From Coprobacillus sp. CAG:698 (lineage in GTDB: Bacteria > Bacillota_I > Bacilli_A > ML615J-28 > CAG-698), in NCBI GenBank assembly GCA_000431235.1, contig HF988734.1, forward strand, positions 92 through 64,091: a stretch of DNA of 64,000 nt, read 5' to 3'. Below the pieces are notes generated by a model. It did no database searches and was not told where the DNA came from. It saw only the letters and a list, made by a program, of their open reading frames with translations. Each line of letters starts with the position of its first letter. The first letter of the stretch is position 1. The position numbers and the translations under genes were made by a program. This document shows, piece after piece, positions 1 through 45,284 of the stretch.

Positions 1-3000
1 TTACAAGAGATGATAATGCAAAAAGCTATACAGCAATTGTTTATAAAGATAATATTCAATATTCAATAATTGAAAACTTTAATAGTGATCAAGAAATTGT
101 TTTTTCAAGAAGAGGAACTTATCAAATAAAGGTTCAAGCTAAGGGAGACAAAATAAATTACTTAGATTCAGATTATTCGAATGAATATACTATGATATGT
201 AATATAAAAGTATTGTATGTTTCTCAAAATAAAGATGATGATTATAAAACCCTTGATGAAGCAATAAAAAACTGTGAAGATGGGTTCACAATTATGCTTG
301 AGAAAGGAACTTATGACTTAACAATAGTTATTAATAAATCAGTTGTAATAAAAGGAAAAGGAATCAATAACACAACTATTAATGTCAAGAAAGATGTGGC
401 TGGAAACTTAAATGCTAAGACAATCGAGTTTGATGGAGTTACTCTACGAGGAACAGGTGGAGAAGCTACCACTACAGGAGTGTACTTTCAAAATGGAAGT
501 AATTTAACAGAATTTACGGTAAAGAATTCCCATATTACTAGCATGAATACTTTTATAAAATTTGTAAGTGAAAGTAAAAATAAAATTAATATTAATATAT
601 TAAATAGTAAAATTGATTACATAGGTCAATTCTTACTATGGGTAACAAAAAGTATAAATGAAATAAATTTAGATGGAAATGTAATTGATACCTCTACATG
701 TGGAGCAGTTGCGAACGTTAATGCTGCATTATTAAGAGTTAGATCAGGGAAAGCAATTGTATATAACAATGAATTTATTTCTGATGTTCAAGCAATTGAT
801 GGTTTATTTGAATGTGGTGTAAATGGAACATTAGTGAGTGTTAAATATAATACTTTCAAAAATGTAACTAAATTTGTCCATATCAATGATGGAAAAGAAG
901 TTGAATTTGATAAGAACTTATATCTAGATGTAAATGGAAAGTCACTAAGTGAAGTCCCTACACAAGTAACTGGTAATGGTGTGAAAAGCGGTTCTCTAGT
1001 AGCAAGTGATGATGCTCGATTAAATGCATACTTAGATAATAGCAATACGAAATTCATTTTAAAATATGATTTACAAGGCGGAAGATTTGAAGAAAATGTT
1101 AGTAAAATATATGATAGTGAAATAGGTATAAACATCTTACCTATACCAGTTAAAGAAAATCATGCTTTTCTTGGTTGGATGTTAGATGGTAAAATAATTG
1201 AAAAACTACCTAAAAATATACTTAACGATATTACGTTAGTAGCTTCTTGGAAATCAATAGAAGGTGAAATATACATGATAACATATTATACAGAAAAAGG
1301 TGAATGGCCTACAAGAGATGCTAAAGATAGATTTGAAATAATCAACGCTCTTTTACAAGACATATATGAGTGGGCAAAGGATAATGGTTATACAGGTACT
1401 TTTGAAAACTATGAAAAGAGTATTCGTGATAAACTTTCAAAATATGAAGATATAAATATAAGAAGTACAGAAATAGGAGATCGTGCTTATGAAGATGGTA
1501 CAACTAAATATTTCTTGAATATACCTAAATATTATGAAAAATGGAATGAATTCTTTAAAGTATTTGATAAAGCAATGCTTAAAGTAAATGCAACTCAATC
1601 ATTCTATAAAGATACATATGCAACTATGGTACGTTTAAATCAATTTATAGCACAAGATTGGAGCACAGGAAAAGGAAATCAATATTTTGGTTCATTCCTT
1701 CCAGAAATGTATAAAACTGTTCAAATACCTGAAGAAATTCAAAAAACATATCAAAGTGGTCAAAGAGTAATTCTTCCTATATTAACATCTAAAACAGGGA
1801 CTAAGTTCTTAGGCTGGTATGAGACAGAAGACTTTAAAGGAAGTCCAGTTACAGAAATTAAAGTAACTGATTATGGTAATAAATCATTCTATGCAAAGTG
1901 GGAAGAAGAAACAAAAGTTGAAAAAGTAACAATTAATCAAATTAGTGAATTAAAGAGATTTGAAACATATAAATTAGAATGGAATCTTAATCCAAGTAAT
2001 GCTTCTAATAAAGATGTTGAATTTACATCAAGCAATGAAAATGTTGCTTCAGTAACAAGCAAAACAGGACTAATAACAGCTCATACAAATGGTAAAACAG
2101 TAATCACTATGAAAGTGTTTGGAAACCGTGAACTTGATGTTAAGTTTGAACTTGAAGTTTATACTCCATCATATGTTACTGGTAAATTTGTGGATAATTC
2201 GTATGTTGTTGAGAATGAAACAATTAAAATAGATGCTGAAGTTAATAATTCTAATGATAAAATTATTTGGTCAACAAGTGATAATTCTATTGCCGTTGTT
2301 GATGAAAATGGCGTAGTTACAGGCTTAAAGGCAGGAAACGTAGTTATAAAGGCAACTTCTGAAAGAAATAATGATTTAGTAATGGAATTTACAGTTACAA
2401 TTATTTCACCATCATCAAGTAATATTTTAAAGTTTATTGCTAGCGAAAACAATGCTAATATATTTACAGAATTAGGCCTTACAATTGGTGGAACATATGA
2501 TGCTGATATTTATGGTAGTGTAAGTAAAATACTTAATGAAAAGTTTGCTGTTAATGATAAATATTATGCAGTCCAACAAGAAAAAGATAGTAATGGCAAT
2601 TATGTAAAGAAAAACTTTGGACCTGTAAAAGATAGTACAGAATTTATCACAGTTCACTATACAGGTAATATGTCTAAAGGTGCTGATGGAGCTGCTAATG
2701 CCTCATACTTTTCTAATGGCGGTTCGGGAACATCAATTCATTATGTAACTGGAAATGATGGAATATATTCTTCGTTAGATGAGAAGTTTGTTGGTTTCCA
2801 TGCTGGCGATGGAAGAGATGTAAAATTTGAATGGAGTCCTACAGGAGTTAAATATAATACAAACGATCCGAAGACTCCAAAATGGGGAATATCAAGTGAT
2901 TCTTACTTTACAATTAATGGCAATAAAACTACAATTAAAACACCATATGATGGTCCATACAAAAATAGTAAAGGAACTATAACTTATCCAGGAAATGGAC

Positions 3001-3554
3001 AAGTAACAGACAGTAAATGGATTAATAATATGGGATTAGCTTATAAGATTGTAGATGGTGAATACTATATGGGTACAACTTGGTGGTGCCATACACAAAT
3101 TCTTGAAGGAAGAATTTGTTCTAAAGGCGGAAACAATAATTCTATAGGAATTGAATCTTGTGTTAACCAAGGAAGTGATTTGTGGTATACATGGCAAAAA
3201 ACAGCACAATTAGTTGCTGATATAATGATTAGGCATAATCTTGATATTACAAGAGTTGTAGGACATCACTTCTTCAGTGCTAAAAATTGTCCTCAACCTA
3301 TGCTTGAAAATGATTTAAGAATATGGCATGAATTTATCAAACTTGTTGAAGCTGAATATGAAAAGATGACAACATATAAAGATTACGAAATAACATTCAT
3401 ATCAAATAATCCTAACATAGTTGATAACCGTGGACGTGTCATAAGTGTTCCAGAATTTACAACATGTGTAACATATACTGTTACGGTAAAGAAAGGAAAT
3501 GACATTCAAAAAATCACATTATCGTCAATTGTTCCAGGAAAATATGAAATGTAA
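1..3554 (+). CDS. 5'-truncated giant secreted cell-wall hydrolase. It has right-handed beta-helix (pectate-lyase-like) repeats, two Listeria-Bacteroides (Flg_new) repeats, two Big_2 Ig-like domains and a C-terminal Amidase_2/PGRP-type N-acetylmuramoyl-L-alanine amidase domain.
   Basis: The reading frame is open from position 3 with no upstream stop, so the true start lies before the window. Motifs seen: GWMLDGKII...LVASWK and FLGWYETEDF...YAKWEE (Flg_new); VASVTSKTGLITA and IAVVDENGVVTGLKAGNVVIKATS (Big_2); GNNNSIGIE...VVGHHFFSAKNCPQP (Amidase_2 signature). Confidence 0.7.
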   Translation, partial: TRDDNAKSYTAIVYKDNIQYSIIENFNSDQEIVFSRRGTYQIKVQAKGDKINYLDSDYSNEYTMICNIKVLYVSQNKDDDYKTLDEAIKNCEDGFTIMLEKGTYDLTIVINKSVVIKGKGINNTTINVKKDVAGNLNAKTIEFDGVTLRGTGGEATTTGVYFQNGSNLTEFTVKNSHITSMNTFIKFVSESKNKININILNSKIDYIGQFLLWVTKSINEINLDGNVIDTSTCGAVANVNAALLRVRSGKAIVYNNEFISDVQAIDGLFECGVNGTLVSVKYNTFKNVTKFVHINDGKEVEFDKNLYLDVNGKSLSEVPTQVTGNGVKSGSLVASDDARLNAYLDNSNTKFILKYDLQGGRFEENVSKIYDSEIGINILPIPVKENHAFLGWMLDGKIIEKLPKNILNDITLVASWKSIEGEIYMITYYTEKGEWPTRDAKDRFEIINALLQDIYEWAKDNGYTGTFENYEKSIRDKLSKYEDINIRSTEIGDRAYEDGTTKYFLNIPKYYEKWNEFFKVFDKAMLKVNATQSFYKDTYATMVRLNQFIAQDWSTGKGNQYFGSFLPEMYKTVQIPEEIQKTYQSGQRVILPILTSKTGTKFLGWYETEDFKGSPVTEIKVTDYGNKSFYAKWEEETKVEKVTINQISELKRFETYKLEWNLNPSNASNKDVEFTSSNENVASVTSKTGLITAHTNGKTVITMKVFGNRELDVKFELEVYTPSYVTGKFVDNSYVVENETIKIDAEVNNSNDKIIWSTSDNSIAVVDENGVVTGLKAGNVVIKATSERNNDLVMEFTVTIISPSSSNILKFIASENNANIFTELGLTIGGTYDADIYGSVSKILNEKFAVNDKYYAVQQEKDSNGNYVKKNFGPVKDSTEFITVHYTGNMSKGADGAANASYFSNGGSGTSIHYVTGNDGIYSSLDEKFVGFHAGDGRDVKFEWSPTGVKYNTNDPKTPKWGISSDSYFTINGNKTTIKTPYDGPYKNSKGTITYPGNGQVTDSKWINNMGLAYKIVDGEYYMGTTWWCHTQILEGRICSKGGNNNSIGIESCVNQGSDLWYTWQKTAQLVADIMIRHNLDITRVVGHHFFSAKNCPQPMLENDLRIWHEFIKLVEAEYEKMTTYKDYEITFISNNPNIVDNRGRVISVPEFTTCVTYTVTVKKGNDIQKITLSSIVPGKYEM

Positions 3555-3652: not shown

Positions 3653-5734
3653 ATGAATAATTTAAAGAAAACAATATCATTTATACTTGCATTATTATTA
3701 ATAGTTTTTTTAGGAGCATGTAATTCTAAAATTTATACTATTGAAGAAGTATATAATGGAACTAGTGATACATATACAATTAATGCAAAGTGTGAATACG
3801 TGTCAAATTCTTATATAATCTTTAGAGATGATACAGGAATATTAGTGTATAAAACTAGTAATGAAAATGTAGATGTTAACACAAGTAAATGCTATAAAAT
3901 AAAAATAAAAGTTAATGAAATAAATAATATTAAACAGATAACTAAAATTACTCAAATTGACTTGATTGATACATTTGCTGTAAAAGATGAGCAAATTGAA
4001 AAAGTTGATAAAAACTTTTCAGTAGATGTAAACAAAACAAGTAAAATTGAAATAAGCGGTTATGTAGAATACAATGATATATTTTATGTAAATAATAAAT
4101 ATTTAGATATAAAAGCTTATACTGAAAATGCATTTGATAGTACAAAGCTTGAAGTAATGTATGATAGATATGTAAAAGTAAAAGGATATGTTGTTGGAAT
4201 AAAAGATAATTCAATGCTTGACTTAGCCATTACTTCTGTTGAGGAAAGCTTTGATATGGGTGAAGATACATCAATGTTAGATCTTCATATATTGGAAATG
4301 AATGATACTCATGGATATTGTATGCAAGATGAAAACGGTAAAAATGGTTTAAGCAATATGGCTTATATAATTAACCAAATAAGAGAAGAATCTAATGAAA
4401 ACACAGTTTTAATCGCTAATGGAGATATGTTCCAGGGAACTGCTTTGTCTAATATAACTTATGGAAAAGCAATGGTTGAAATTATGAATGCAATGAAAGT
4501 TGATTGTATGACTTTAGGTAATCATGAATTTGATTGGGGAATTGAAAAAGTCTTACAATATTTTGATAAAGATTTAAGTAATGGTGAAGCAAACTTTCAA
4601 CTTTTAAATGCTAATGTTTATAAAAATGGAGGCACGTTACTTACTGTAGAGAATGGAAATGTTTTTGAAAGTACAATTATTAACCGTTCTGGAATTAATA
4701 TTGGTGTTATAGGATGTATTGGCGATGTTTATACATCAATTAATTATTTACGTGTGAAAGATTATTATTTTGAAAATAACATAGAAAATACTGTTTCTAA
4801 AATAGGAACAAAATTAAAAGATGAAGGCTGTGACATTATAGTTGTTGCAGTTCATGGAGGAAACTCTAGTGGTGTTGAAAACTATGTTGTTAATAACAAA
4901 TTAGCTAGTCTTAAATATAAAGAAGGATATCTAGTTGATGCCGTAATTAATGGGCATACTCATACAAAACAAAATGGATATATTGAGAGAACTAGTGGTT
5001 TAAAATTACCAGTTGTTCAAGCTGGATGTAATGGTAAAGCTTTAGGTGATATAGTTTTAAAAGTTGATGAAAAATCTAAAAAAGTTATTGCTTCAGTAAT
5101 TAAAAGCCATAACGTTTATGAAGCCGATACAAACTATGATGATAAAGTTGAGGAAGTTGTTAGAAAGCAAAGAAAAGAAAACGAAAGTGAGTTGAGTGAA
5201 GTATATTCTGTGGCTGGCGAAACTATCGAAACACAATATGATTTAATTCCATGGGTAGGAAATGTGTTAGTAAGTGGAACGGGTGCTGATGTCGCTGTTT
5301 GTAATACAGGGGGTTTAAGATCGAATGGAAACATCAAAAAAGGAAGTAATATTACTATTGAAAATATGTATATGATTAATCCGTTTGATAATGAAATAAT
5401 TCTTGTGAAAGTTAAGGGAAACTTATTAGCACAGTTTATGCAAAACGGAAAAATGTTCTTTGGAAAAAAGGAAAATCTAGGAGAACTAGAAATGAATACA
5501 GAATACCTAGTTGCTGTAGTTGATTATGTTTATTATGGAGGTGATTTTCCTCAAAATGAAACTGCTTATTCTACAGGAATTATTATGCGAGATTTACTTA
5601 TAGAAGATATTAAATTGCACTCTGTCTTTAGTCCAATTCGAGATCCTAAAGCTAAAATAACTGTTAAAGAGAACAAAATCCAAACTAATATTTATTATAA
5701 AAAGGAAGATTTATATGAAAATTATTGTTATTGA
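3653..5734 (+). CDS. Lipoprotein in the bifunctional metallophosphatase/5'-nucleotidase family, with an N-terminal OB-like domain, a calcineurin-like phosphoesterase domain and a 5'-nucleotidase C-terminal domain.
   Basis: Signal peptide with lipobox LGAC. Motifs GNHEFDWG and NGHTHT. RBS AAAGGAG. Confidence 0.8.
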   Translation: MNNLKKTISFILALLLIVFLGACNSKIYTIEEVYNGTSDTYTINAKCEYVSNSYIIFRDDTGILVYKTSNENVDVNTSKCYKIKIKVNEINNIKQITKITQIDLIDTFAVKDEQIEKVDKNFSVDVNKTSKIEISGYVEYNDIFYVNNKYLDIKAYTENAFDSTKLEVMYDRYVKVKGYVVGIKDNSMLDLAITSVEESFDMGEDTSMLDLHILEMNDTHGYCMQDENGKNGLSNMAYIINQIREESNENTVLIANGDMFQGTALSNITYGKAMVEIMNAMKVDCMTLGNHEFDWGIEKVLQYFDKDLSNGEANFQLLNANVYKNGGTLLTVENGNVFESTIINRSGINIGVIGCIGDVYTSINYLRVKDYYFENNIENTVSKIGTKLKDEGCDIIVVAVHGGNSSGVENYVVNNKLASLKYKEGYLVDAVINGHTHTKQNGYIERTSGLKLPVVQAGCNGKALGDIVLKVDEKSKKVIASVIKSHNVYEADTNYDDKVEEVVRKQRKENESELSEVYSVAGETIETQYDLIPWVGNVLVSGTGADVAVCNTGGLRSNGNIKKGSNITIENMYMINPFDNEIILVKVKGNLLAQFMQNGKMFFGKKENLGELEMNTEYLVAVVDYVYYGGDFPQNETAYSTGIIMRDLLIEDIKLHSVFSPIRDPKAKITVKENKIQTNIYYKKEDLYENYCY

Positions 5735-7414: not shown

Positions 7415-7541
7415 ATAAAATTTCCTCCTTTTTTTATATTAATAGTATATAATAATTCTTTGCAAAAGTAAAGCAAAAATACAAGGTATACGCACATTCA
7501 CAAAAATTTAGTAAACATATAATGTAATGGGAGGTGAAAGA

Positions 7542-7796
7542 ATGAACGGAAACTTCAATCAAAATGTTACTGTTAATCCACCAATTGTTACAAGACAAAC
7601 TAATGTAGTTAATAGATATTTTTATATTGATCAACCACATATTTGTGAAATGGAGACACAATATGTAAATCATTACATTAAACGTCACAAATTTATTCCT
7701 AAATATACATGTTGCGAGAAAAACGTATATTGTGAAGAAAATTGTGGATGCTGCCCTGGTATGAATCAAGGCATGAATAATATTAATAATCAATAA
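7542..7796 (+). CDS. Small Cys-rich protein, a possible spore coat protein (CotD-like is a guess).
   Basis: RBS GGGAGGTGA then ATG at 7542; the listed ORF start 7527 lies inside the RBS. C-terminus is CCEKNVYCEENCGCCPG. Confidence 0.45.
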   Translation: MNGNFNQNVTVNPPIVTRQTNVVNRYFYIDQPHICEMETQYVNHYIKRHKFIPKYTCCEKNVYCEENCGCCPGMNQGMNNINNQ

Positions 7797-7831
7797 TATA
7801 TTATATCTAATAACTTAAAATTTATTACAAA

Positions 7832-7870
7832 GGAAGGAAACAAGTTGAAAAACTTGTTTTTTCCTTTATA
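7832..7870 (+). terminator. Rho-independent terminator.
   Basis: GGAAGGAAACAAGTT-gaaa-AACTTGTTTTTTCCTT. Confidence 0.55.
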
Positions 7871-8060
7871 AATGTGTCTCATATAATAGTAATAAAAGTT
7901 AACTAAAGAAAATATAATTAATATATTAATTTCATATTGAACTTGCATAAATAATTGCCTTTTAAGTTAAAGTATGATAAAATAAAATAAACAAAAGTTA
8001 ATAAATTGTATAAATACCATAAAAAGGTAAATAATAATCTATCATAAGGGGGAGTATTCT

Positions 8061-11000
8061 ATGGATAGTATTAATATGCCAACTTGGCTAACGCCATCAT
8101 TTGTAGCTACTGGACTGACAATTTTAAGTATTGTAGTTATTCTCATAGGTTTTTTGATTGGATTTATTAGAGGCACGTATCGCGCAAGTTATCGTTTTAT
8201 TGTTTCAATAGTTGTTATATTGGGCCTATGGTTAATCATGCCGATATTCACAAACAAACTGTTATCACTTGATTTACACAAATTTAATTTAGAGATAATA
8301 AATGTAACAGGTTATAAATCTGTTGAAGGATTTCAAGTGAACTCAGTAAAAGATGCTGTGGATATATATTCACGTGTTCTTTTAGGCTTAACAACAGAAA
8401 ACGAAGGAGTATTAATCCTTAAAGAAACAAATATAAATATTGGCGAAACAATGATATATCAAACACTTATAAGTGCTGTTGAGATGTTATTAAGAGCTGC
8501 GTTGCTTCTTGTTATTATTATATTAAATTGGACATTATTTAGATTTATCTTCTTTATTGTTTATTTGTGTACTAAACCAAAGAGAGAAAATAAATATCAA
8601 AAGAAAAAAACAATGAAATCAAGATTAATTGGTTCACTAATTGGAACTGTTAATATGATTTGTATTTTATTAATAGTATGTATACCTCTTTCAGGAGTCT
8701 TTTCATTAGCTGAAAGTTCAGTTAAATTAATTGAGACTGAAGAAAGTGATGTTATCAAATTAAGTTTAAACAAAGAAGTTATTGATTTAGATGAGAATCC
8801 AGACTTCGTTGAATTTGCTAACGAAAATAAAGAATGGGTATATGTCTATCGTAAAACATTCTTAGGAAAAATTTTTGGAATTAAAGTAAGCAAAGATACG
8901 CCGTTAGATTGTGCACTATTTGATGGAATCTTCTCATTCAAAGCTGGAGGAGAAAAAATAGCTCTAAGAAAAGAATTAGATGTATGTCTAAAGGCTATGG
9001 AACCATTAAAAGATGAGATAATAATACCTTTAATTAAAAATGAAAATACTGCAACTATTTTAGATAATTTATCTAGTGATACGATAAAGAATTCATTAGA
9101 CAAGTTATCAGAACTAAAACTAGTCAATGCTGTAGTAAATGTTGGTTTAAATACGGGAATCATAATTGCTAAAAACGATGGTGAGATCTTCAAAGAATAT
9201 GTAAACTTAAAAGATATCTTACTAAGATTAGAAGGTAAAGAAATAAATGCCTCTGAATTATTACGAGAAATTGGTGATCTATCTGAAGCTATTTTAACAC
9301 TTACAAAAAGCAGTGGATATAAAATCAGTGAGTTACTTTCAGAAGACAATGGAAATACAGTTTCTAAACTTGTTGATATACTATTAAAAGTTGATACAAA
9401 TGTAGTCACAAATGTATTTGATGCCATTTCTAAAATTGAATTAATTGACTTAATCCAAGAAATTACTTTTCCAACTCTTGAAGATTATCTCAACAATAAC
9501 GAGAATTTAAATAGAATAATTTTATTATATCCAAAAGTTACTTTAGATGAAAACTATTTAGTTATAAATGGTATTAAAACTAATATTTTGTGGGATAAAG
9601 ATACATTAGAGAACATATCGTTTAAAGTTAGTAAAGATAACAAATGGATTGTTGATGGAAAAGAGACTAATTTAGATGCTAGTGGTAGTATTTTTAAAAT
9701 AAAACTTGATGGAATAAAATTAACAGATGAAGTTAAAAACATAGGCTCTTTATACAAAGCCTTTAAAGATTTAGATATTAATTCATTTAGTCAAATTCAA
9801 CTTTTAATTGAAAAAGGACAAGTTGAAGGAAGCTATGATCTAGAAAAAGCAACATATGATAAAATAGATAACTTATTTAAGAGTTTATTGGACTTTAAAA
9901 TTATTAGTAATTGTAAAGATAATATATATGCTATTTTAAATAATATGTTACCAAATGAGTATCGTAATTTGCTCAGTAGATGTAAATTTGATAGTGAAGA
10001 TTTAGCATCACTTGTGTATGCAGGTAAAGTAGTTGCAAGCACAGGAGTAATTTGGGATATAGATGGAAAATTAAAAACCGATGGAAACATCGATTATACA
10101 AAGGTTTATACTATTTTCAATAGTATAAAAGATGAATTATCAGAAAATCTAGCTAAATCAAGTATTATTGTTGAGAACATAAATACGGTGGCAAGCTACG
10201 CACTTAGTGTTTTTGCTCCAGATATGAAATTAGATTTTGCTTCTGTTGACTGGAAGAATAATAGTAAAGAAGAACTTAATAAACTATTTAATGTTTTGAA
10301 TGTATGTTTAAAACATGGCAATAAAATCACTTCAGATTTTTATAGTTTAACAGATGAAGAAATTGATGAAATAGCTAATGTATTAAAAGAAAATATTGCT
10401 ACTTCAGATTTATTAAAGAAGAATATGAATAATATAGTATCTGTAGTTTCAAATTTAGAATCACTAAAAGAACTAAATGCAACAATTGCTCCTCTTGATG
10501 AAGATGAATGGACTACCGAAGAATTAGATAGTATATTTGATTCAGTGAAAATAATCGTTAAGATGGTTAAAGCTTCTAGCGGAGATCAAAACAATCTTTT
10601 AGTCACTCTATTGAAACTAAATGAAAATGATATAAATACTATTTTGGATTCAAAATTCATATCATTAAATATTGTTTACAACTTATGTGCTCAAGCAAGT
10701 GAAGGTGGATTACTTTACGAAAAAGTAATTATTAACCTTGATAGAGATGATCCTTCTTGGTATGGAGATGAAGGTGAATTAAAAACAATATTATCAAATG
10801 CAATTAAATTAATTGATGGAGTGGATAATTTAGAAAACACAGATGAAGCTGTGGAAAAAATCGTTAAAAATATTTCTAAATTAAATAGCAACTTCAAGAA
10901 AGAAAATGATGATATTGGAAAACTTTTGTCAAGTAGTGTAATTTCTGATACGTTAATTTACTATTTAGAAAACCTTGATAAGTTCTTAGGTAAAGAAATC

Positions 11001-13805
11001 TCTGATATGATTGTCATACCAGAAGATATTAACTGGAAAGATACAACTGAAGAAGGCGAACTAAGAAAAATATTAGTAGCTACCAAAGATGTTTTAGTTG
11101 ATGAAAATGGTGAAGTTATCATTAATGATCTAAAAACAGGTGATGAAAAACAAATAATAAAAGTTTTATTAAAGATTAATGATGAAAAGATAGATCAAGT
11201 TTTAGATAGTAAAATAATCTTAAAAACAGCAGTTAAGTTTATTGAAAAGTATAGTAAAGAAGAAAATAAATTACAAATCTTCTTACAAAACAAAACTAGA
11301 GACGATGCATATTGGCAAAGTCAAATGAAGACAGTGCTAAAAGGATTAAAAGACATACTACTTGATAGTGAAGGCAATGTAATTAGTTTTGAATTGCAAG
11401 GAGAAGAATACATTGAAATCATTAGTAAACTAAAAGAAGAAAGCATAAATAAACTTTTAGATAGTGAAATACTTGTTGATACAATTGCTCATTTAATCAT
11501 TAATATGGCAGACCAAGAAAATAGTCTATTTGTTGTCCGTAATGACTTTAGAGAAACTGATGAAAAATGGAGCAGTACGCAAACAGATATCTGGAGAAAT
11601 GAAATTAATAAAATAATCACTTCAGCAAAATCATTGTTGATTAAAGAGAATCCAGATGGAACATATACTAATAATTTTAAAGTGTTTACAGAAGGAACAG
11701 CAGAAGAACAAATTAATCTTTTACTTGATGTTAAAGATGAAGATATTATCAAGATTACTGACAGTGTAATCATTGTTGATTCAATAAGTAAAGTTCTTAT
11801 AGACATGTCAAATGAAGAAAATGCTGTTATAAAAATATCTGATGAAGTAAAAGGATATGATATACAAAGTTGGAAAGTAGAAATTCAAAAATTAATCGCA
11901 TCGATTAAAGAGTTACTAATTGATGAAAATGGTGAAAAACAAACTGCCAAACTATTAAACGGAAATCAAGATGATATTATCATGATTTTAGTTAACATTG
12001 GCGAAGATGAAAGCAAGATAAGAAAAATTATTGATAGTGAAATAGTTTACCAAACATTAACAAGTTCTGTAAAAGAATTAGGTGAAGGCGAAGAAAAAGT
12101 AATTTATTTACCAAGTGATATTGATTCTTGGACTAAAGATGATTGGATAAATGAAGTTAAAGGCATAATTTATGCTTCAAATAAATTATTTATCGAAGGC
12201 GAAGGCGAACAAAAGAAAGTAAACTTTGATAAACTAAATGGTGATACTAACACTTTACTTCAAACTATTGTAGATTTATATGATGACACAAATGAAAACG
12301 ATGATTTATCAAAAGTATTACAAAGCTTAATAATTGTTAAGACAATCTCAGAACAAATAATCAAATTGTCAAAAGAAAATGACATGATTAATACAAACGG
12401 AGTTATAAGCTACTCTCTTGATGAGTGGAAAGTAGAGATTAGAGCTCTAGTGGCTTCTTCAAAACTTGTGTTTGCTGATGAGACAGGAAAGATAGATATA
12501 AATAATATATCTTTTGATAAATTTATTGTTCTAAATGACAAGCAAATTGAAACATTATTAGATTCACAAATAATTCGTTATAGTGCTTCGAAAAAAACAT
12601 ATGAAATACTAAACGATGGTGCTTTAAAAGATTATATTAATTTAAGTGGTAATGAATCAGAAGATGTTGATTTAGTAAGTAGTGATTTACCTAACCTATT
12701 AAAAGTAATCAGAGATTTAAATGAAAAAGGTATAAATTATACTGAATTTACTTTTGATAAGTTCAAGGAGAAAATAGGTGATGATGAAACTAAAGCAGAT
12801 GAAATAAGTGACATCTTACTTACTTCACAAATAATTTGTAATTCATTAAGCAAAATGATAGGTAAAGTATTAGATGGCGCCTTAGGCGTAGATTCTGATA
12901 TGAGAAAAGCAGTTAATTTAGATATGGATAAAACTGAAACTGAAGGTAGAAATTACTGGTTAGATAATCCAGAAACTAAAGAAATAGGTGAATTTAAAAA
13001 GATATTTAGATTATTAACATGCATAGATCAGTTTACTAATGTTAATAATATAGAGAATAATAAAAACATAAAAGAAGCTAGTCTTATTGCTACACCATTA
13101 AAACGTATTAATGATTCTATGGTTTTACGTGGTATTATTCCTATGTTTGTTGAGGAAACAACTGCTAATGTGGATGCGTGGAAATATAGTTCTGGCGATA
13201 ATATGTATAAGGATCCATACGTATTTACTAAAGAAGAATGGGATCAAGAAATAGATAACATTAGTACAATAATTTCTTTAGTAAATGCTAATAGTCTTAC
13301 ATTAGGTGGTATTAATGTAAAAGAAACTGATCTTAAAGTATTAAAAATGATACTCAAAGAAGTTGCCAAATCAAGAATTTTAAATATCGCATGCATTGAA
13401 AAAACTGTTAAAGAAGGCGTTGACAATACATTCTTTGGTGGAAAAGATACAGTTACTGTTGCTAAAGTTTATGATGGCACAAATTATGATGAGAAAGTTT
13501 TAGCTTGGAATGGAAACGAAGAAAATCTAGGTGAAATCGATAAACTTATTAATGCACTAGAAGTCTTAAAGACTATTACATCTACAGAAATAAATGGAAC
13601 TGCTGCTGGACAAGCTAATGCTAAAGTTATAGGAAGATTCTTAGATAAGTGTAAAGAATCTAAAATGTTATGTAGTGTGATAGTTACTATTGTTAATGAG
13701 AAATATAAAGATTCTTTAAGTAAAATAGGTATAACTGTAACTGAAAGTTCACTTCAAGGAATTAACTTTGAAACATCATTACCTTTAGCTGCATTATTTA
13801 TGTAA
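8061..13805 (+). CDS. Giant 1914-aa protein. The N-terminal 230 aa form a polytopic CvpA-like membrane domain, followed by about 1700 aa of highly acidic, degenerate tandem repeats of roughly 90-100 aa.
   Basis: N-terminus LIGFLIGFIRGTYRASYRF with several TM helices. The repeat unit recurs at least 6 times as W..E(I/V)..L(I/V)AS.K.LLIDENGE...LLDS(E/K)I(I/V). Strong RBS AAGGGGGAG. The antisense ORFs inside it are artefacts. Confidence 0.7.
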   Translation: MDSINMPTWLTPSFVATGLTILSIVVILIGFLIGFIRGTYRASYRFIVSIVVILGLWLIMPIFTNKLLSLDLHKFNLEIINVTGYKSVEGFQVNSVKDAVDIYSRVLLGLTTENEGVLILKETNINIGETMIYQTLISAVEMLLRAALLLVIIILNWTLFRFIFFIVYLCTKPKRENKYQKKKTMKSRLIGSLIGTVNMICILLIVCIPLSGVFSLAESSVKLIETEESDVIKLSLNKEVIDLDENPDFVEFANENKEWVYVYRKTFLGKIFGIKVSKDTPLDCALFDGIFSFKAGGEKIALRKELDVCLKAMEPLKDEIIIPLIKNENTATILDNLSSDTIKNSLDKLSELKLVNAVVNVGLNTGIIIAKNDGEIFKEYVNLKDILLRLEGKEINASELLREIGDLSEAILTLTKSSGYKISELLSEDNGNTVSKLVDILLKVDTNVVTNVFDAISKIELIDLIQEITFPTLEDYLNNNENLNRIILLYPKVTLDENYLVINGIKTNILWDKDTLENISFKVSKDNKWIVDGKETNLDASGSIFKIKLDGIKLTDEVKNIGSLYKAFKDLDINSFSQIQLLIEKGQVEGSYDLEKATYDKIDNLFKSLLDFKIISNCKDNIYAILNNMLPNEYRNLLSRCKFDSEDLASLVYAGKVVASTGVIWDIDGKLKTDGNIDYTKVYTIFNSIKDELSENLAKSSIIVENINTVASYALSVFAPDMKLDFASVDWKNNSKEELNKLFNVLNVCLKHGNKITSDFYSLTDEEIDEIANVLKENIATSDLLKKNMNNIVSVVSNLESLKELNATIAPLDEDEWTTEELDSIFDSVKIIVKMVKASSGDQNNLLVTLLKLNENDINTILDSKFISLNIVYNLCAQASEGGLLYEKVIINLDRDDPSWYGDEGELKTILSNAIKLIDGVDNLENTDEAVEKIVKNISKLNSNFKKENDDIGKLLSSSVISDTLIYYLENLDKFLGKEISDMIVIPEDINWKDTTEEGELRKILVATKDVLVDENGEVIINDLKTGDEKQIIKVLLKINDEKIDQVLDSKIILKTAVKFIEKYSKEENKLQIFLQNKTRDDAYWQSQMKTVLKGLKDILLDSEGNVISFELQGEEYIEIISKLKEESINKLLDSEILVDTIAHLIINMADQENSLFVVRNDFRETDEKWSSTQTDIWRNEINKIITSAKSLLIKENPDGTYTNNFKVFTEGTAEEQINLLLDVKDEDIIKITDSVIIVDSISKVLIDMSNEENAVIKISDEVKGYDIQSWKVEIQKLIASIKELLIDENGEKQTAKLLNGNQDDIIMILVNIGEDESKIRKIIDSEIVYQTLTSSVKELGEGEEKVIYLPSDIDSWTKDDWINEVKGIIYASNKLFIEGEGEQKKVNFDKLNGDTNTLLQTIVDLYDDTNENDDLSKVLQSLIIVKTISEQIIKLSKENDMINTNGVISYSLDEWKVEIRALVASSKLVFADETGKIDINNISFDKFIVLNDKQIETLLDSQIIRYSASKKTYEILNDGALKDYINLSGNESEDVDLVSSDLPNLLKVIRDLNEKGINYTEFTFDKFKEKIGDDETKADEISDILLTSQIICNSLSKMIGKVLDGALGVDSDMRKAVNLDMDKTETEGRNYWLDNPETKEIGEFKKIFRLLTCIDQFTNVNNIENNKNIKEASLIATPLKRINDSMVLRGIIPMFVEETTANVDAWKYSSGDNMYKDPYVFTKEEWDQEIDNISTIISLVNANSLTLGGINVKETDLKVLKMILKEVAKSRILNIACIEKTVKEGVDNTFFGGKDTVTVAKVYDGTNYDEKVLAWNGNEENLGEIDKLINALEVLKTITSTEINGTAAGQANAKVIGRFLDKCKESKMLCSVIVTIVNEKYKDSLSKIGITVTESSLQGINFETSLPLAALFM

Positions 13806-13813
13806 AAGAAAAT

Positions 13814-13860
13814 ACTCTTGTTTTAGTACAATTAATGTACGAAAGCAAGAGTTTTTTAAT
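13814..13860 (+). terminator. Terminator after the giant gene.
   Basis: ACTCTTG...CAAGAGT with an inner GTAC/GTAC stem, then TTTTTAAT. Confidence 0.45.
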
Positions 13861-13966
13861 TATTTTTAAAATTCATAAGATATAATATATGACGTATAAA
13901 AATAAAGTAATGGACTTATAAGCAAAATTATGATAAAATATATCATACTTTGAAAGGAGACCAAAA

Positions 13967-20435: not shown

Positions 20436-20523
20436 GACTTTTATTGTCCTTTTTCTTTTGCATTTGACAACAATTATACATAATAGTATAATACACATAA
20501 ATTAATGTTAAAGAGGTTTGATT

Positions 20524-22182
20524 ATGAGAACAAAAATTAAAATGCTTAGTTTGGGATTATTAGTTATGATATTGTTATGTATAATGGTATCTTGTGAGAA
20601 AAAAATCATAAGTAGCGACATAGTAATACTTTATACTAATGATGTTCACTGTAAAATAGATGAAAAAATAGGTTATGCTGGGTTAGCAAGTTATAAAAAC
20701 TATGTAAAAACGAAGACTGATTATGTTACCTTAGTAGATTGTGGAGATGCAATCCAAGGTGATGCAATTGGAACTATCTCTAAGGGTGAACTTATAATAG
20801 ACTTAATGAACGAAGTAGGATATGATTACGCTATATTAGGTAATCATGAATTTGATTATGGAATAGACCAATTATCAAACTTAATAAATAAATCTAAGGC
20901 TACATATTTAGGATGTAATCTTGAGTATAGTGGAACTAAAACAAATAAATTATCAAATGTTAAAAGGTATGAGATAAAAGAATATGATGATAAAAAAGTA
21001 GCATATATAGGCGTAAGTACTCCTGACACATTAGTGTCATCAAATCCGACTAACTTTAAAGAAGACAATGAATTTGTTTATGGATTTTTTGGTGAATCTA
21101 ATGAAAAATTCTATGATAGAGTTCAAGACACAATCGATGAATGCAAAAACAAAGGTGCAGATTATGTTGTTATTTTATCACATTTAGGTGATGAAGTAGG
21201 AGTAAGTGGTATTACATCGATGTCTTTAATTGAAAACACAAAAGGAATAGATGTCTGCTTAGATGCACATAGTCATCACGCTTTCTCAACAAAGCTTATA
21301 GAAAATAAAGATAAAAAGAAAGTATTACTATCACAAACTGGAACACAATTAGATGCTATAGGGCAACTAGTAATAACACATGATGGTTTCCTTACAACAA
21401 GCTTAATAACTGATTATACTGATAAAGATACAAAAGTTAATAATAAGATTGAAGAGGTTAGAAAAACATGCAATGAAATATTAAAAGAAAAAATAGCCAC
21501 AAGTGATATTTCATTATCTATAGCAGATACTGAAGGCGTAAGAATGGTTCGTAACCGTGAAACCACAATTGGCTCATTCTGTGCAGACGCCTATAGACTA
21601 GTTACAGAAGCTGATATAGCATGTGTAAATGGAGGAGGAATTAGAGCAAGTTTGCCTCAAGGTGAAATAACATACGAAGATATAATCGCCATTCATCCAT
21701 TTGGAAATATGATTTGTGTTGTTGAAGCAACAGGGCAAGAGATACTAGATATGTTAGAGGTAGCCTCACGTAACACTGAATTAGTATACAAAAAAGATGG
21801 TCTTGCATATGGTGAAAACGGAGGTTTCTTACAAGTGTCAGGTATAAAATATACAATTGATACAAGTATTAAATCAAGTGTTGTCTTTGATGAAAAAGGA
21901 TTCTTTAAAGAAATAAATGGTAAACGAAGAGTTTGTGATGTTTATGTACTAAGTGGTAACGACTATACTTTAATTGATGTTAATAAAACATACACTTTAG
22001 CATCAAATAATTATATTATTAAAAATGGTGGCGATGGTATTAATATGTTTATGGATAATAAATTAATACAAGATGAGACACTAATTGATAATCAAGTGTT
22101 AATCACATATATACGTGATATATTAGGTGGTAAAGTTGGCGATAAATATTCAACAACACAAAATAGAATAATAATAAAATAA
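20524..22182 (+). CDS. Second 5'-nucleotidase/metallophosphatase lipoprotein, a paralogue of the 3653 gene.
   Basis: Lipobox MVSC. GNHEFDYG and DAHSHH motifs. RBS AAAGAGGT. ATG at 20524, downstream of the listed TTG. Confidence 0.8.
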   Translation: MRTKIKMLSLGLLVMILLCIMVSCEKKIISSDIVILYTNDVHCKIDEKIGYAGLASYKNYVKTKTDYVTLVDCGDAIQGDAIGTISKGELIIDLMNEVGYDYAILGNHEFDYGIDQLSNLINKSKATYLGCNLEYSGTKTNKLSNVKRYEIKEYDDKKVAYIGVSTPDTLVSSNPTNFKEDNEFVYGFFGESNEKFYDRVQDTIDECKNKGADYVVILSHLGDEVGVSGITSMSLIENTKGIDVCLDAHSHHAFSTKLIENKDKKKVLLSQTGTQLDAIGQLVITHDGFLTTSLITDYTDKDTKVNNKIEEVRKTCNEILKEKIATSDISLSIADTEGVRMVRNRETTIGSFCADAYRLVTEADIACVNGGGIRASLPQGEITYEDIIAIHPFGNMICVVEATGQEILDMLEVASRNTELVYKKDGLAYGENGGFLQVSGIKYTIDTSIKSSVVFDEKGFFKEINGKRRVCDVYVLSGNDYTLIDVNKTYTLASNNYIIKNGGDGINMFMDNKLIQDETLIDNQVLITYIRDILGGKVGDKYSTTQNRIIIK

Positions 22183-23241: not shown

Positions 23242-24474
23242 ATGAAAAAATTAGGAAAGATTATGAGCCTATACTTACTGCTTGCCTTGTTTGTTGGTTT
23301 ATTTGCTTGTTCTGATAGATTATTTACTGAAAGAAAAATAATGTCTAGTGAACTTACAAGTAATGTCCAAACAAGAGAAATTAAGGTTAAGGATATAGAT
23401 ATAACTTTCGAAAATATTTACAGCGAATTTGCTGTGAAGATGATGAAAGAGTTATATGAAGAAGAAAATACTTGTATATCTCCACTTTCAATAGCTGCTG
23501 CTTTTGGTATGGTTACAAATGGCGCAAATGGAAAAACAAAAGATGAATTGGAGTCATTACTAGGAACTGATGTCCAAACATTTAATTCTTATTTTGCATC
23601 ATTAATGAGTAAAAATGGAAAAAGTAAGAAATTATATCTAGCAAATTCGATATGGAGTCGAAAAGATGAAGTAACAGTCAAAGATGAATTTTTAGATATT
23701 GTTAAGAATAATTATCATGCTCAAGTTTATTCATCAGAATTTGATGATAATACAGTAAAAGATATCAATAATTGGGTTTATAACAATACACGAGGTGGTA
23801 TTGGCAATATAATCGAAAAAATTGAACCTTATGAAATACTTTTCTTAATTAATGCTCTTGATTTTGAGTCAGAATGGAAAGAAAAATTTGAGAAGAATGA
23901 AATCGTAAATAAAACATTCCATGGATTACAAAGTGAAAAAGAAGTTTCTATGATGTTCGCTACAGAACATACTTATATTGAGTCTAAAAATGCCAAAGGA
24001 TTTATAAAATCATATGCAGATGAGGATTATAAATTTGCTGCTCTACTTCCAAACGAAGATATATCAATCAAAGAATATATGAATTCTCTTACTGGCGAAG
24101 AACTCAATAAAATATTAGCAAATGCACAAAAAGAGTCTATTAGAATAGGCCTACCTAAATTTGATTTTGAAAACACATTTGATATGAAACCAACTCTAAA
24201 GAAACTAGGAGTAAATGAAGCATTTGAAGAATATGGTGATTTCACTAATCTTGGAACTAGTAAAAATGGAATTATGTATATAGGAAGCGTTATTCATAAA
24301 ACACACATTTCAGTAGATGAGATGAAAACAAAAGCAAGTGCGGTAACAAGTATTGGGATGACAAATGATTCAGCAGTAATGTTAAAACCAATTATTCTTG
24401 ATAAACCATTTATCTATATGATACTTGATAAAAATAATTTACCTATATTTATTGGTGCAATTGTAAACTTTTAA
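23242..24474 (+). CDS. Serpin-family (serine protease inhibitor) lipoprotein.
   Basis: Lipobox LFAC. Serpin-like core, with a hinge/reactive-centre-loop region (…KASAVTSIGMT…) and a C-terminal PIFIGAIVNF-type motif. RBS AAGGAGG. Confidence 0.65.
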   Translation: MKKLGKIMSLYLLLALFVGLFACSDRLFTERKIMSSELTSNVQTREIKVKDIDITFENIYSEFAVKMMKELYEEENTCISPLSIAAAFGMVTNGANGKTKDELESLLGTDVQTFNSYFASLMSKNGKSKKLYLANSIWSRKDEVTVKDEFLDIVKNNYHAQVYSSEFDDNTVKDINNWVYNNTRGGIGNIIEKIEPYEILFLINALDFESEWKEKFEKNEIVNKTFHGLQSEKEVSMMFATEHTYIESKNAKGFIKSYADEDYKFAALLPNEDISIKEYMNSLTGEELNKILANAQKESIRIGLPKFDFENTFDMKPTLKKLGVNEAFEEYGDFTNLGTSKNGIMYIGSVIHKTHISVDEMKTKASAVTSIGMTNDSAVMLKPIILDKPFIYMILDKNNLPIFIGAIVNF

Positions 24475-37962: not shown

Positions 37963-38036
37963 ATTCTATATATAATACTAATTATGTTTTTAATACTTTC
38001 ATTAAATAATTTATTACAAAATAAAAAGAAAACCCT

Positions 38037-38071
38037 CAAATAGTGAGGGTTAGGATGTTAACAAAGTCCAA
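38037..38071 (-). terminator. asnA terminator on the minus strand.
   Basis: AACCCTCA-aatag-TGAGGGTT, with a T-run on the minus strand. Confidence 0.6.
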
Positions 38072-38077
38072 AATATT

Positions 38078-39067
38078 TTATAATAAATGTATATTTTGTT
38101 TAGCTAAACTTTCAATGTCTTCTTCACTCCATACAGAAGATTGTACTTCACCAATATGAGCCTTTTTTAAGAAAAACATACATAGACGAGATTGTCCGAT
38201 CCCTCCACCAATAGTATAAGGAAGTTCTTTTTTCAATATGCTTTGGCAGTATGGATTGCTAAGCTTGTATATTTCGTTTTTTGCTTCTAATTGTTTTACC
38301 AAGCTATCTTCATCTACTCTAATACCCATTGAAGATATTTCATATGCACGATCAATAACTTCATTGTAAAGAATAATATCACCATTTAAATTCCAGTCAT
38401 CATAATCAGCAGCTCTTCCATCATGAGATGAACCATCACTTAAAGGCCAACCTATTTGATAAAGGAAGACAGCTTTATATTCTTTTGCAATCGCGTTTTC
38501 TCGTTCTTTACGTGAATAAGTAGGATATCTTTTTTCTAATTCTTTTGTAGAGATAAAGGTAATATCTTTTGGTAAGTCAAAAGTTAATTCAGGATATTTT
38601 TTAGTAACTAAATCAGCAGTTTTAAGAATAACAGCATATATTTTACTAACTATCTTTTTAAGATAACTATAAGTTCTTTCGTTCTTAGAAATAATTTTCT
38701 CCCAGTCCCATTGATCAACATAGGCAGAATGAAGTAAATCAAGATCTTCATCACGACGGATGGCATTCATGTCAGTATATAATCCTTTACTATGCTCAAA
38801 ATTATATTTTTTAAGAGCCATACGCTTCCACTTTGCTAAGGATTGGACGATTTCAACGTCTTTACCAATTGCTTTAATATCAAATCTAACTGCACGTTCG
38901 TAGCCGTTAAGATTGTCATTAAGTCCAGTCTCCGGAATAACAAATAATGGAGCAGATACACGTGTAAGCTCTAATTTTTTTCCTAGAAGCTTTTCAAAAT
39001 TGTCTTTTACAAACTTAATAGCAACTTCAGTTTCTAGTAGATTTAAGATTGGTTTATAATCTTTCAT
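38078..39067 (-). CDS. asnA: Aspartate--ammonia ligase (asparagine synthetase A).
   Basis: Full-length AsnA signature (class II aaRS-like fold): …LELTRVSAPLFV…GIRVDEDSL…. Confidence 0.9.
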   Translation of the reverse strand: MKDYKPILNLLETEVAIKFVKDNFEKLLGKKLELTRVSAPLFVIPETGLNDNLNGYERAVRFDIKAIGKDVEIVQSLAKWKRMALKKYNFEHSKGLYTDMNAIRRDEDLDLLHSAYVDQWDWEKIISKNERTYSYLKKIVSKIYAVILKTADLVTKKYPELTFDLPKDITFISTKELEKRYPTYSRKERENAIAKEYKAVFLYQIGWPLSDGSSHDGRAADYDDWNLNGDIILYNEVIDRAYEISSMGIRVDEDSLVKQLEAKNEIYKLSNPYCQSILKKELPYTIGGGIGQSRLCMFFLKKAHIGEVQSSVWSEEDIESLAKQNIHLL

Positions 39068-39349
39068 TTTAACACCTCCGTTTTGTGTAAATTATAACAC
39101 TATCTTTTTGAAAACTACAAGAAGAAAATGCTTACATTTGCATTTTTTAACACTTTTTATAGGTTTAAAGTAATTCTTCAAATAATTATATTAAAGTAAA
39201 TAGGAAAAAATACATAAATGTATAATTACAAAAATGTACATACATAAAGATAAATTTATATAAATAATTTGTTAATGACAATTTTTAAAGCATATAGAAA
39301 TAAAAGTAAGAGATGTTAAGGCAACTATTACTGATTCAGGCAGATTCAA

Positions 39350-39714
39350 ATGCAATTAGATAAAATCTATTTGACGCAATATTACGACATAGATTTATTA
39401 AGAAAAGCGGGATATAACAAATTTAAGATAACGGGAACATTAGATGTGAAGAAAATCGATGCTGGATATCGGCATATATTTTTCTTTAGTATAGATGAAA
39501 CAAATGATAAGTATTGTTTAAATGGTGCCGATGGCCATCAATTTGAAATAGATTCAGATAAAAAATAACTAGTTATGTAAAATATTCTTTTACAGAAACA
39601 ATTTCTAATAGAGAATTAAAAGAATATTTATATATAAGATATGAAGCGTCAGGTAAATTTGAAGATACATGGGTAAATAAAAATGTCCTTGTAAATATCA
39701 CTCCTATAAAATAG
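39350..39714 (+). CDS. Small hypothetical gene split by a +1 frameshift at an A6 run (39556-39561).
   Basis: ORF 39350-39568 ends ...EIDSDKK*. A protein-like frame continues for 49 more codons (ITSYVKYSFTETISNRELKEYLYIRYEASGKFEDTWVNKNVLVNITPIK*) with no start codon. One extra A would join the two parts. Confidence 0.45.
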
Positions 39715-39796
39715 TATTAATATAATAAAATCTTTTATAAATCAATAGACAAAAGAAGTCAGTAATGATATAATAAGGGCATAACGAGGTATAAAG

Positions 39797-40666: not shown

Positions 40667-40747
40667 GTGTCCTTTTCAACTTGTAGATTTTAAACATTAA
40701 AAAGTACGTATGGAGTATAATGTATACGTAAAAAGGAGGAAGTGTAT

Positions 40748-42325: not shown

Positions 42326-42335
42326 GAGGTAAATT

Positions 42336-44561: not shown

Positions 44562-44590
44562 TTATATTTACAAAAATTTTTAAAAAACCC

Positions 44591-44619
44591 TTTATAAATT
44601 TAATAAAATGTGATATAAT
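44591..44619 (+). promoter_or_regulatory. Promoter with an extended -10 (TGTGaTATAAT).
   Basis: TTTATA, 17 nt, then TGaTATAAT. The 13-mer AATGTGATATAAT recurs at 59796-59808. Confidence 0.45.
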
Positions 44620-44657
44620 CAGTTAGTAAATTTTAAAAAAAGATTGGAGATATATTT

Positions 44658-45283: not shown

Positions 45284-45284
45284 G

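Follow-up and report, generated by a model that had tools for sequence, protein, structure and literature searches.

CvpA, the colicin V production protein, is found in many bacterial phyla, and enteric pathogens require it to colonise the gut and to withstand bile. Colicin V production and deoxycholate resistance are the phenotypes tied to it, although its mechanism is not known. It is predicted to cross the membrane four times, with a periplasmic C-terminus of varying length, and its near-invariant residues are one Asp and three Gly that include a GxxxG (bioRxiv 10.1101/2020.09.25.314492). Here we describe a gene of Coprobacillus sp. CAG:698 for a protein of 1914 amino acids (aa), referred to below as the giant protein, in which a CvpA-like membrane anchor is followed by a long acidic extension with an array of ~92-aa helical units. 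The gene lies on the forward strand at 8061-13805 of the window, by which we mean the whole stretch of DNA that was analysed (64,000 nucleotides (nt); assembly GCA_000431235.1, contig HF988734.1, positions 92 to 64,091). We read the giant protein as an envelope protein encoded on the chromosome of a Coprobacillus-like Firmicute (class Bacilli, order Erysipelotrichales), and the best explanation of the whole, which we lean towards with restrained confidence, is that it forms a length-adjustable, membrane-anchored, acidic helical-repeat surface scaffold.

The closest functional analogues are Ebh and Embp of staphylococci, giant membrane-tethered surface proteins made of tandem alpha-helical modules, as is predicted for the giant protein, although the latter is not homologous to them in sequence. 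Ebh is tethered via its C-terminal region, whereas the giant protein has an N-terminal polytopic CvpA-like anchor. The Ebh/Embp modules (FIVAR and GA) measure ~100-130 aa and form an elongated structure, as opposed to a unit of 92 aa with four short helices, and Pfam gave no match to FIVAR, GA or DUF1542 in the giant protein at E up to 1. Embp is a 1-MDa surface protein whose F and FG repeats consist of two alpha-helical bundles each (PMC7587433); nothing points to fibronectin binding, or to another ligand, in the giant protein. EzrA of the Firmicutes, which has spectrin-like repeats, resembles the giant protein in having an N-terminal membrane anchor followed by helical repeats of ~100 aa. 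However, EzrA is held by a single transmembrane (TM) helix and has a fixed number of repeats in the cytoplasm, whereas the giant protein has four such helices and a unit number that varies, and its units are predicted to be outside the cell; no sequence similarity between the two was detected. Finally, ARM/HEAT solenoids (importin-beta, beta-catenin, designed ARM proteins) are stacks of short helices in tandem repeats, as is predicted for the array of the giant protein. Their unit is 40-47 aa with two or three helices, in contrast to 92 aa with four helices and a beta-turn, and they are mostly eukaryotic and intracellular, whereas the giant protein is bacterial and predicted to be extracytoplasmic; it has neither a Pfam match nor a significant structural match to ARM/HEAT.

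Organization of the giant protein

The open reading frame (ORF) is uninterrupted and encodes a protein of 215.6 kDa. Its main parts, all on the forward strand, are as follows.

8061..13805 (+): complete giant gene (1914 aa, 215.6 kDa; identical protein P0001 and 97-99% identical proteins on many independent contigs)
8061..8723 (+): divergent anchor of predicted CvpA/Colicin_V type, aa 1-221 (hydropathy, AlphaFold2 (AF2) helices, conservation, Colicin_V matches of relatives, profile search, charge statistics)
8724..9953 (+): juxtamembrane module, aa 222-631 (conserved, mostly helical, not built of the 92-aa unit)
9954..10205 (+): degenerate unit ahead of the array, aa 632-715 (family unit hidden Markov model (HMM), 12.2 bits; shuffle maximum 8.8)
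10227..12683 (+): array of nine canonical ~92-aa units, aa 723-1541 (alignment, leave-one-out and family HMMs)
12684..13802 (+): C-terminal helical module, aa 1542-1914 (conserved; 91% identical to P0038 and 28% to P0051; AF2 predicted local distance difference test score (pLDDT) ~90)

Homologs share three parts: a collinear N-terminal module, a variable unit array and a conserved C-terminal module. The N-terminal module (aa 1-722) is 45-83% identical among homologs and 32% in the most distant one, and the juxtamembrane module within it is collinear at the same 45-83%. Close homologs have 9-18 units in the array, and the identity of the C-terminal module (aa 1484-1914) ranges from 91% down to 28%. 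The identical and 97-99% identical proteins come from many contigs, with “Coprobacillus sp.” and “Bacilli bacterium” metagenome-assembled genomes (MAGs) as named sources; the near-identical relatives (97-100%) are all labelled hypothetical and are without a Pfam domain. The gene is real and vertically inherited, because near-identical copies occur on many contigs, synteny is kept and the Shine-Dalgarno (SD) sequence is strong.

The extension beyond the anchor comprises 1693 aa and is strongly acidic, as an earlier note on this DNA (made by a model from the sequence alone) had stated; it has 301 D+E versus 198 K+R, a net charge of -103 and an isoelectric point of 4.56. The same note was wrong in describing this region as free of Cys, since ~11 of the 14 Cys of the giant protein are in the extension, and only ~aa 900-1500 is Cys-free. 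Within the juxtamembrane module there is a small beta-hairpin domain at aa 493-539, and the family unit HMM found no significant match before aa 632.

A divergent CvpA-type anchor

Four hydrophobic segments occupy the N-terminal 221 residues, in agreement with the approximately four TM helices proposed earlier, and the motif cited in support, GFLIGFIRG, is found within the string IGFLIGFIRG at aa 29-38. The segments and the loops between them are predicted as follows.

nt 8094-8168 (+): TM1, aa ~12-36 (hydropathy, AF2 helix)
nt 8187-8264 (+): TM2, aa ~43-68 (hydropathy, AF2 helix)
aa 64-130 (+): predicted outside loop between TM2 and TM3
nt 8451-8570 (+): TM3, aa ~131-170 (hydropathy, AF2 helix)
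aa 171-187 (+): predicted cytoplasmic K/R-rich loop
nt 8613-8702 (+): TM4 with R188-x-x-G191-x-x-x-G195 (hydropathy, aa ~185-221; AF2 helix, 185-225)

E. coli CvpA (b2313, 162 aa; PF02674) likewise has four TM helices with a predicted N-out/C-out arrangement, and both proteins are predicted to have an extracytoplasmic C-terminal segment of variable length and to start TM4 with the motif R-x-x-G-x-x-x-G(-x-x-x-G). The giant protein differs from CvpA in an insert of ~70 aa between TM2 and TM3, and in having Ser for the conserved Asp and Met for the third Gly. It is also 12 times longer, with a structured extension of 1693 aa versus the few tens of residues of CvpA, so that at 1914 aa it is far from the single-domain size of ~160-200 aa that is typical of CvpA proteins.

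Scans of the whole giant protein with Pfam, NCBIfam and PHROGs gave no match, and direct comparison of the anchor with E. coli CvpA gave little signal. With a profile of 9 anchor sequences, hhalign returned a probability of 0.1%, which is not significant. A profile of 136 sequences gave a weak match (hhalign P 0.0085; an hmmsearch score beaten by 1 of 1000 shuffles), in which only the start of TM4 was aligned. The kinship is seen through intermediates. An exhaustive search with the anchor profile found 542 cluster representatives (E <=1e-3), of which 111 have E <=1e-10. Nearly all are proteins of 500-3245 aa that begin with the anchor, right at the N-terminal end. When these relatives were scanned with Pfam, Colicin_V (PF02674) was essentially the sole family found, over model positions 1-136 of 144 (E 3e-6 to 1e-2). 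One relative, P0121, which is matched by the anchor profile at E 5.6e-16, passes the curated gathering cut-off of the family (29.3 bits) with 36.8 bits (E 4.9e-9, model positions 4-126), and five others (P0127, P0142, P0126, P0072 and P0200) reach 26-28 bits over model positions 1-136. Since the relatives match Colicin_V almost exclusively and P0121 exceeds the gathering score, the kinship of the anchor with CvpA is supported, indirectly, by transitivity through intermediates, of which P0121 passes the Pfam threshold. From these sequence comparisons, we conclude that the anchor belongs to the CvpA superfamily as a divergent member, and that by its own score it falls below the curated threshold of the family. 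The National Center for Biotechnology Information (NCBI) has attached the label “CvpA family protein” to three relatives, of 2450 aa, 2121 aa (Acholeplasmataceae) and 732 aa.

Across the family, TM4 starts with R(90%)-x-x-G(99%)-x-x-x-G(93%)-x-x-x-G(62%), with the same spacing as DRVLGVCFGALRG of E. coli, on which we infer the near-invariant Asp and Gly residues of CvpA to lie. The giant protein has the first two of these Gly residues (G191 and G195), and Met at the position of the third. At the position of the conserved Asp, the family has mostly Ser (47%), His (22%) or Asn (10%).

An array of ~92-aa units

Trp recurs in the extension at aa 731, 817, 900, 992, 1085, 1178, 1271, 1362 and 1456, with a spacing of 83-94 aa. 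The nine Trp-anchored segments can be aligned to the common pattern W..E(I/L)..(I/L)..S.K.LL.DE.G... ...D(E/D).I...L.S.II..TI, at a mean pairwise identity of 23%, and the motifs named earlier are present (WKVEIQKLIASIKELLIDENGE at aa 1271-1292; LLDSEI at 1132). The envelopes of the nine units are aa 725-806, 811-892, 894-988, 986-1077, 1079-1161, 1166-1261, 1265-1352, 1356-1448 and 1450-1529. In leave-one-out HMM tests, eight of the nine score 19-57 bits versus a shuffle maximum of ~13, while the first unit (723-808) fails with 6.7 bits. All nine score 26-51 bits with a family unit profile, which was made from 866 units of other family members and excludes the giant protein and its near-identical relatives.

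The family unit profile also detects degenerate copies on both sides of the array. Three segments (632-715, 12.2 bits; 1524-1609, 19.9 bits; 1627-1707, 10.3 bits) beat all 300 shuffles, whose maxima were 8.8 and 7.8 bits, whereas segment 1811-1894 is borderline (4.4 bits) and segment 1721-1791 is not significant. Thus, the repeat is real, with a period of ~92 aa that is supported over ~1080 aa (632-1707). It comprises ~12 supported units, or up to ~14 if the rhythm of the secondary structure is counted; in the last ~200 aa, the 92-aa rhythm is present in the predicted secondary structure only. The periodicity is significant in the HMM tests against shuffles, and the tandem repeats of the earlier note therefore stand. 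Its figures do not, as the period is ~92 rather than 95 aa, there are nine clear and three degenerate units instead of “at least 6”, and the supported extent is considerably shorter than the ~1700 aa given there. Ungapped BLOSUM autocorrelation, which is weakened by indels, has a z of only ~4 at lag 93, and self-BLASTP of the giant protein gave the identity match only.

No tandem repeat was found in the giant gene at the level of the DNA, which argues that its units are old; recent tandem duplication of units in this gene was rejected on the same ground. In P0047 (2546 aa), adjacent units at aa ~1254-1813 are nearly identical (for example, NEPNGANDEVGKLLSSKVLSDTIIDLLEEQSKENGGALVVADNIKWEDT occurs twice), which shows that units have recently been duplicated in some lineages, as distinct from the gene of the window.

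Predicted structure of the units and flanking modules

For aa 1263-1914, the alignment was deepened with orthologous C-terminal regions and paralogous three-unit windows, and the resulting AlphaFold model has a pLDDT of 89, a predicted TM-score (pTM) of 0.74, and 62% helix in helices of 8-19 aa. In units 7-9 of this model, helix A (19 aa) starts at the conserved Trp, and the chain then turns tightly at “DENGE”. The three remaining helices, B, C and D, have ~11, 8 and 15 aa, respectively, the last of which carries the DSxIIxDTI motif, and a linker of ~13 aa leads to the next unit. This confident model predicts that the units pack together as a single compact array of helical repeats, and its 92-aa helix rhythm runs on through the C-terminal module, which has the two supported degenerate units (1524-1609 and 1627-1707) followed by two 92-aa periods in secondary structure only. 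A second model, of aa 1-722, has a pLDDT of 70-85 over aa 300-720, where it is helical with one small beta-hairpin domain. As a whole, the 1693-aa extension is predicted to be all-alpha.

The predicted helices are too short for a coiled-coil fibre of the M-protein type, which we rejected because helices of 8-19 aa are separated by turns; “fibrillar”, the word used earlier, thus finds no support in the coiled-coil sense and would better give way to a helical-repeat, solenoid-like rod, the predicted fold being a helical-repeat array. A search with profiles against the sequences of the Protein Data Bank (PDB) gave only chance-level matches. Neither Pfam nor NCBIfam has a family for the ~92-aa unit, which is also without a solved relative.

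The C-terminal module ends in a short hydrophobic helix, LPLAALFM. The giant protein does not conform to the sortase-anchored type, since its end (...ETSLPLAALFM) is without LPXTG and without a charged tail, and its N-terminus is polytopic.

Unit number in alleles and in the wider family

The sister genome L007 (GCA_034103965.1) has 98-99% DNA identity across the locus, and its allele encodes 2325 aa with 14 units. As seen by blastn of the window against L007 and by protein comparisons, the two alleles differ by one in-frame indel of 1233 bp, with the following junction.

12512..12519 (+): length-polymorphism junction (~8 bp of shared sequence; 1233-bp in-frame indel versus L007)

The junction joins unit 9, ~39 residues in, to unit 14 of the L007 allele, ~36 residues in, and such equivalent depths indicate an in-register exchange between units. 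The same variable dominates the family. Among 124 representatives of at least 500 aa, the unit is present in 86, in counts of 0-28, and protein length correlates with unit count (r = 0.91). In total, 866 copies of the unit were found in 155 family representatives. We conclude that unit number is the main variable of the family, and that it changes by in-register recombination between units. The description “ruler-like” is compatible with this variation.

All family members are acidic (D+E 13-21%), and the named sources all belong to the class Bacilli or the Mollicutes: Coprobacillus, Bacilli MAGs, Acholeplasmataceae and Hujiaoplasma nucleasis, which is wall-less and free-living. In P0213 (4210 aa, L010) and P0140/P0203 (3245/3328 aa), the anchor is present with few or no recognisable 92-aa units, so that it has evidently been combined with other long extensions as well. 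With 542 cluster representatives in the clade, and some giants already named “CvpA family protein” by NCBI, to call the architecture unusual was an overstatement; it is common in the clade and partly auto-annotated, yet uncharacterised. Giant CvpA-anchored proteins of Erysipelotrichales, Acholeplasma or Hujiaoplasma were not found described in a literature search.

Topology and export

Over 136 anchors of the family, the mean net charge is -0.3 for the N-terminus, +2.8 for loop 1, -4.0 for loop 2, +7.2 for loop 3 and -7.2 for the first ~45 residues after TM4. Because loops 1 and 3 are positive while the N-terminus, loop 2 and the segment after TM4 are acidic, the positive-inside rule predicts an N-out, C-out topology, with loop 2 and all of the extension likewise outside the cell. 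The relative P0089 (547 aa) has the same CvpA-like anchor fused to a Peptidase_M23 domain (E 5e-21), and such a peptidase needs an outside location. This fusion suggests that the anchor is a general module for the display of extracytoplasmic domains. The cell-surface structure proposed in the earlier note is therefore plausible, by way of the charge statistics, the predicted periplasmic C-terminus of CvpA and the M23 relative, all of which are prediction or analogy.

In such an arrangement, TM4 with its K/R-rich leader would serve as an internal export signal for the extension. TM4 is followed by a Pro/Gly breaker (P209, 74% in the family; G212, 88%) and then by S215-x-A217, which loosely resembles a signal-peptidase site. 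Cleavage at this site is speculative, since the -1 position is only modestly conserved.

Proposed function and alternatives

In the scaffold reading, the CvpA-type anchor would fix the protein in the membrane, and the extension would stand out from it as a stiff, strongly negative rod. At the surface, the rod would act as a scaffold, spacer or coat, with a length that depends on the number of units and is adjustable in this way, and the conserved C-terminal module at its distal end would be the likely contact site. The conserved residues of the unit are probably structural and not catalytic, namely the Trp that starts helix A and the Ser/Asp helix caps in DSxIIxDT. Because these residues appear to serve as core and capping positions, the array is better read as a scaffold than as an enzyme.

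Several points weigh against this interpretation. By itself, the isolated anchor scores 10.6 bits against Colicin_V (E 0.56, aa 20-69 only), below the cut-off, so that the CvpA-like N-terminus of the earlier note is borne out by its relatives (P0121) and by the RxxGxxxG spacing, and not by its own Pfam score; also, the conserved Asp of CvpA is Ser187 here. The model of aa 1-722 has a mean pLDDT of 63, and below 50 in the membrane part, which makes that part unusable. The predicted topology is founded on the positive-inside rule and analogy only, and to export a 1700-aa domain of net charge -103 after an internal TM helix is a demanding task. Foldseek searches of the PDB with both models gave no significant match (best E 0.016 and 0.07; TM-scores 0.1-0.2). 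The top lists consist almost wholly of ARM/HEAT solenoids, and a solenoid class is suggested for the array from the flavour of these non-significant lists together with the secondary structure. Likewise, the rod shape is an extrapolation from the model. Lastly, no ligand or partner of the giant protein is indicated.

A first alternative, which we regard as possible though unlikely, is that the working part is the CvpA-like membrane domain, with a role in homeostasis of the envelope or membrane potential, as has been proposed for CvpA, and that the extension is its extracytoplasmic sensor or partner-binding arm. Within the family, the anchor is indeed better conserved and more widely shared than any other part, and is joined to other C-terminal parts, including the M23 peptidase and unit-free extensions. 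For CvpA itself, partner binding or the sensing of stimuli has been proposed as the task of the variable periplasmic C-terminus, and a C-terminal green fluorescent protein (GFP) fusion was reported to be non-functional (bioRxiv 10.1101/2020.09.25.314492). However, the mechanism of CvpA offers no guide, as it is not known, and the conserved Asp is missing from the anchor. Moreover, a 1700-aa rod that varies freely in length between strains is unexpected for a tuned sensor, and the ECF (energy-coupling factor) transporter neighbourhood described below is not kept in distant members, so that the gene context suggests no functional partner.

A second alternative, rather more doubtful, is that the extension serves to bind host mucus, matrix or other cells, as an adhesin or a binding platform, and that it is perhaps released or processed by a signal-peptidase-like cleavage after TM4 (P209-L-S-G ... 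S215-L-A217 / E). The organism lives in the gut, and the gene is located among many predicted surface proteins (Big_2, BspA-type leucine-rich repeat (LRR), amidase). Helical-repeat arrays are classic protein-binding scaffolds, polymorphism in unit number is typical of surface adhesins, and giant adhesins with helical-bundle repeats are known, such as Embp (PMC7587433, PMC9302970). Nevertheless, known binding domains were not detected, and the strongly conserved N and C modules speak against rapid antigenic diversification; the presence of the family in free-living, wall-less Hujiaoplasma also indicates that its function is not host-specific. As for the release step, TM4 has a positive n-region, a hydrophobic core, the Pro/Gly breaker and small residues at -3 and -1, but Ala is found at -1 in only 38% of the family (~63% small residues).

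It is quite improbable that the extension is cytoplasmic and forms a membrane-tethered cytoskeletal or division scaffold similar to EzrA. Alpha-helical repeats of ~92-100 aa behind an N-terminal membrane anchor would fit this possibility, as would the occurrence of the family in Mollicutes-related lineages, some of which rely on internal scaffolds, and the topology of the giant protein is a prediction only. The positive-inside statistics clearly point the opposite way, however: the protein has four TM helices and begins with a short acidic segment, so that the K/R-rich loops would come to lie outside if the C-terminus were cytoplasmic. In addition, the M23 peptidase on the anchor of a relative needs an outside location, and the C-terminus of CvpA is predicted to be periplasmic. 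Finally, the idea that the gene is a pseudogene, or an ORF that is long by chance in AT-rich DNA, has only the low G+C (27-28%) in its favour. It can be dismissed as already refuted by homologs at 27-99% identity with conserved N and C modules, a strong SD, a confident AF2 model and a length polymorphism that is in frame.

If the giant protein is a surface scaffold as we propose, the family is an example of the CvpA fold used as a membrane base under very large extracytoplasmic structures, and this would support the view that CvpA proteins work through their outward-facing C-terminus. The unit array would be a rare bacterial, and probably extracellular, case of an ARM/HEAT-like fold, and an acidic protein of 200-350 kDa could be a major surface determinant in gut Erysipelotrichales and their wall-less relatives. 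The 9- and 14-unit alleles at 98-99% DNA identity provide a natural allelic series for length-function tests. A broader proposal, which we offer as speculation and consider to have a low probability, is that in Mollicutes-related Bacilli, with or without a wall, these proteins make up a class of extracytoplasmic helical-repeat “rulers” of tunable length that has not been described before. The number of units would set the thickness or spacing of a surface layer, and the CvpA-type anchor would couple this layer to membrane homeostasis. If true, this would for the first time give the variable C-terminus of CvpA proteins a concrete role.

Gene context and other features of the window

Two sites upstream of the giant gene may serve its expression.

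8046..8054 (+): strong Shine-Dalgarno sequence AAGGGGGAG, at a distance of 6 nt from the start codon ATG (8061; seen in the sequence itself)
7955..7983 (+): promoter-like site, TTGCCT, 17-nt spacer and TAAAAT with a TG extension (consensus scan, pattern match only)

The consensus scan found promoter-like sites in this region in a number no greater than in shuffles, and the G+C content across the window is 26-31%. Just upstream, at 7542-7796 (+), there is a small conserved ORF of 84 aa with a Cys-rich C-terminus (CCEKNVYCEENCGCC), which has no Pfam match. It is 79% identical to its equivalent in L003, while the two giant proteins are only 43% identical. It is followed by a GC-containing, terminator-like inverted repeat at ~7830-7868, and is overlapped by a minus-strand ORF (7434-7793) that is probably spurious.

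The gene order clpP (opposite strand), giant gene, ecfA1-ecfA2-ecfT-truA is kept down to a homolog of 27% identity, whereas more distant anchor-bearing relatives are found in unrelated gene contexts. For this reason, we consider the ECF neighbourhood to be clade-level synteny, and a functional link to the downstream ECF transporter genes was rejected as a general feature. In the 161-nt gap between the giant gene and ecfA1 (13806-13966), the scan saw no terminator-like hairpin on the + strand, so that the giant gene may be co-transcribed with ecfA1-ecfA2-ecfT-truA.

The window also has a cluster of other large proteins predicted to be at the surface, identified by Pfam, as follows.

192-3554 (+): Big_2 + Amidase_2 + Flg_new surface protein, 1120 aa
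17322-20435 (+): Big_2/Big_3 surface protein, 1037 aa
32010-36257 (+): BspA-type LRR + alpha/beta hydrolase + Flg_new surface protein, 1415 aa
36298-37851 (+): Big_2 surface protein, 517 aa

Two paralogous metallophosphatase/5'-nucleotidase genes lie ~15 kb apart at 3653-5734 and 20518-22182 (+). A type IV secretion system (T4SS) coupling protein (T4SS-DNA_transf, TraG-D_C, TrwB) is encoded at 42336-44561 (+), and the GC skew falls to ~0 at 38-40 kb of the window; on these two grounds, the region ~38000-47000 may be an integrated conjugative element. The window also contains a full-length serpin at 23242-24474 (+; Pfam Serpin, E 1e-77). Serpins are uncommon in bacteria, and this one may matter in protease-rich gut habitats.

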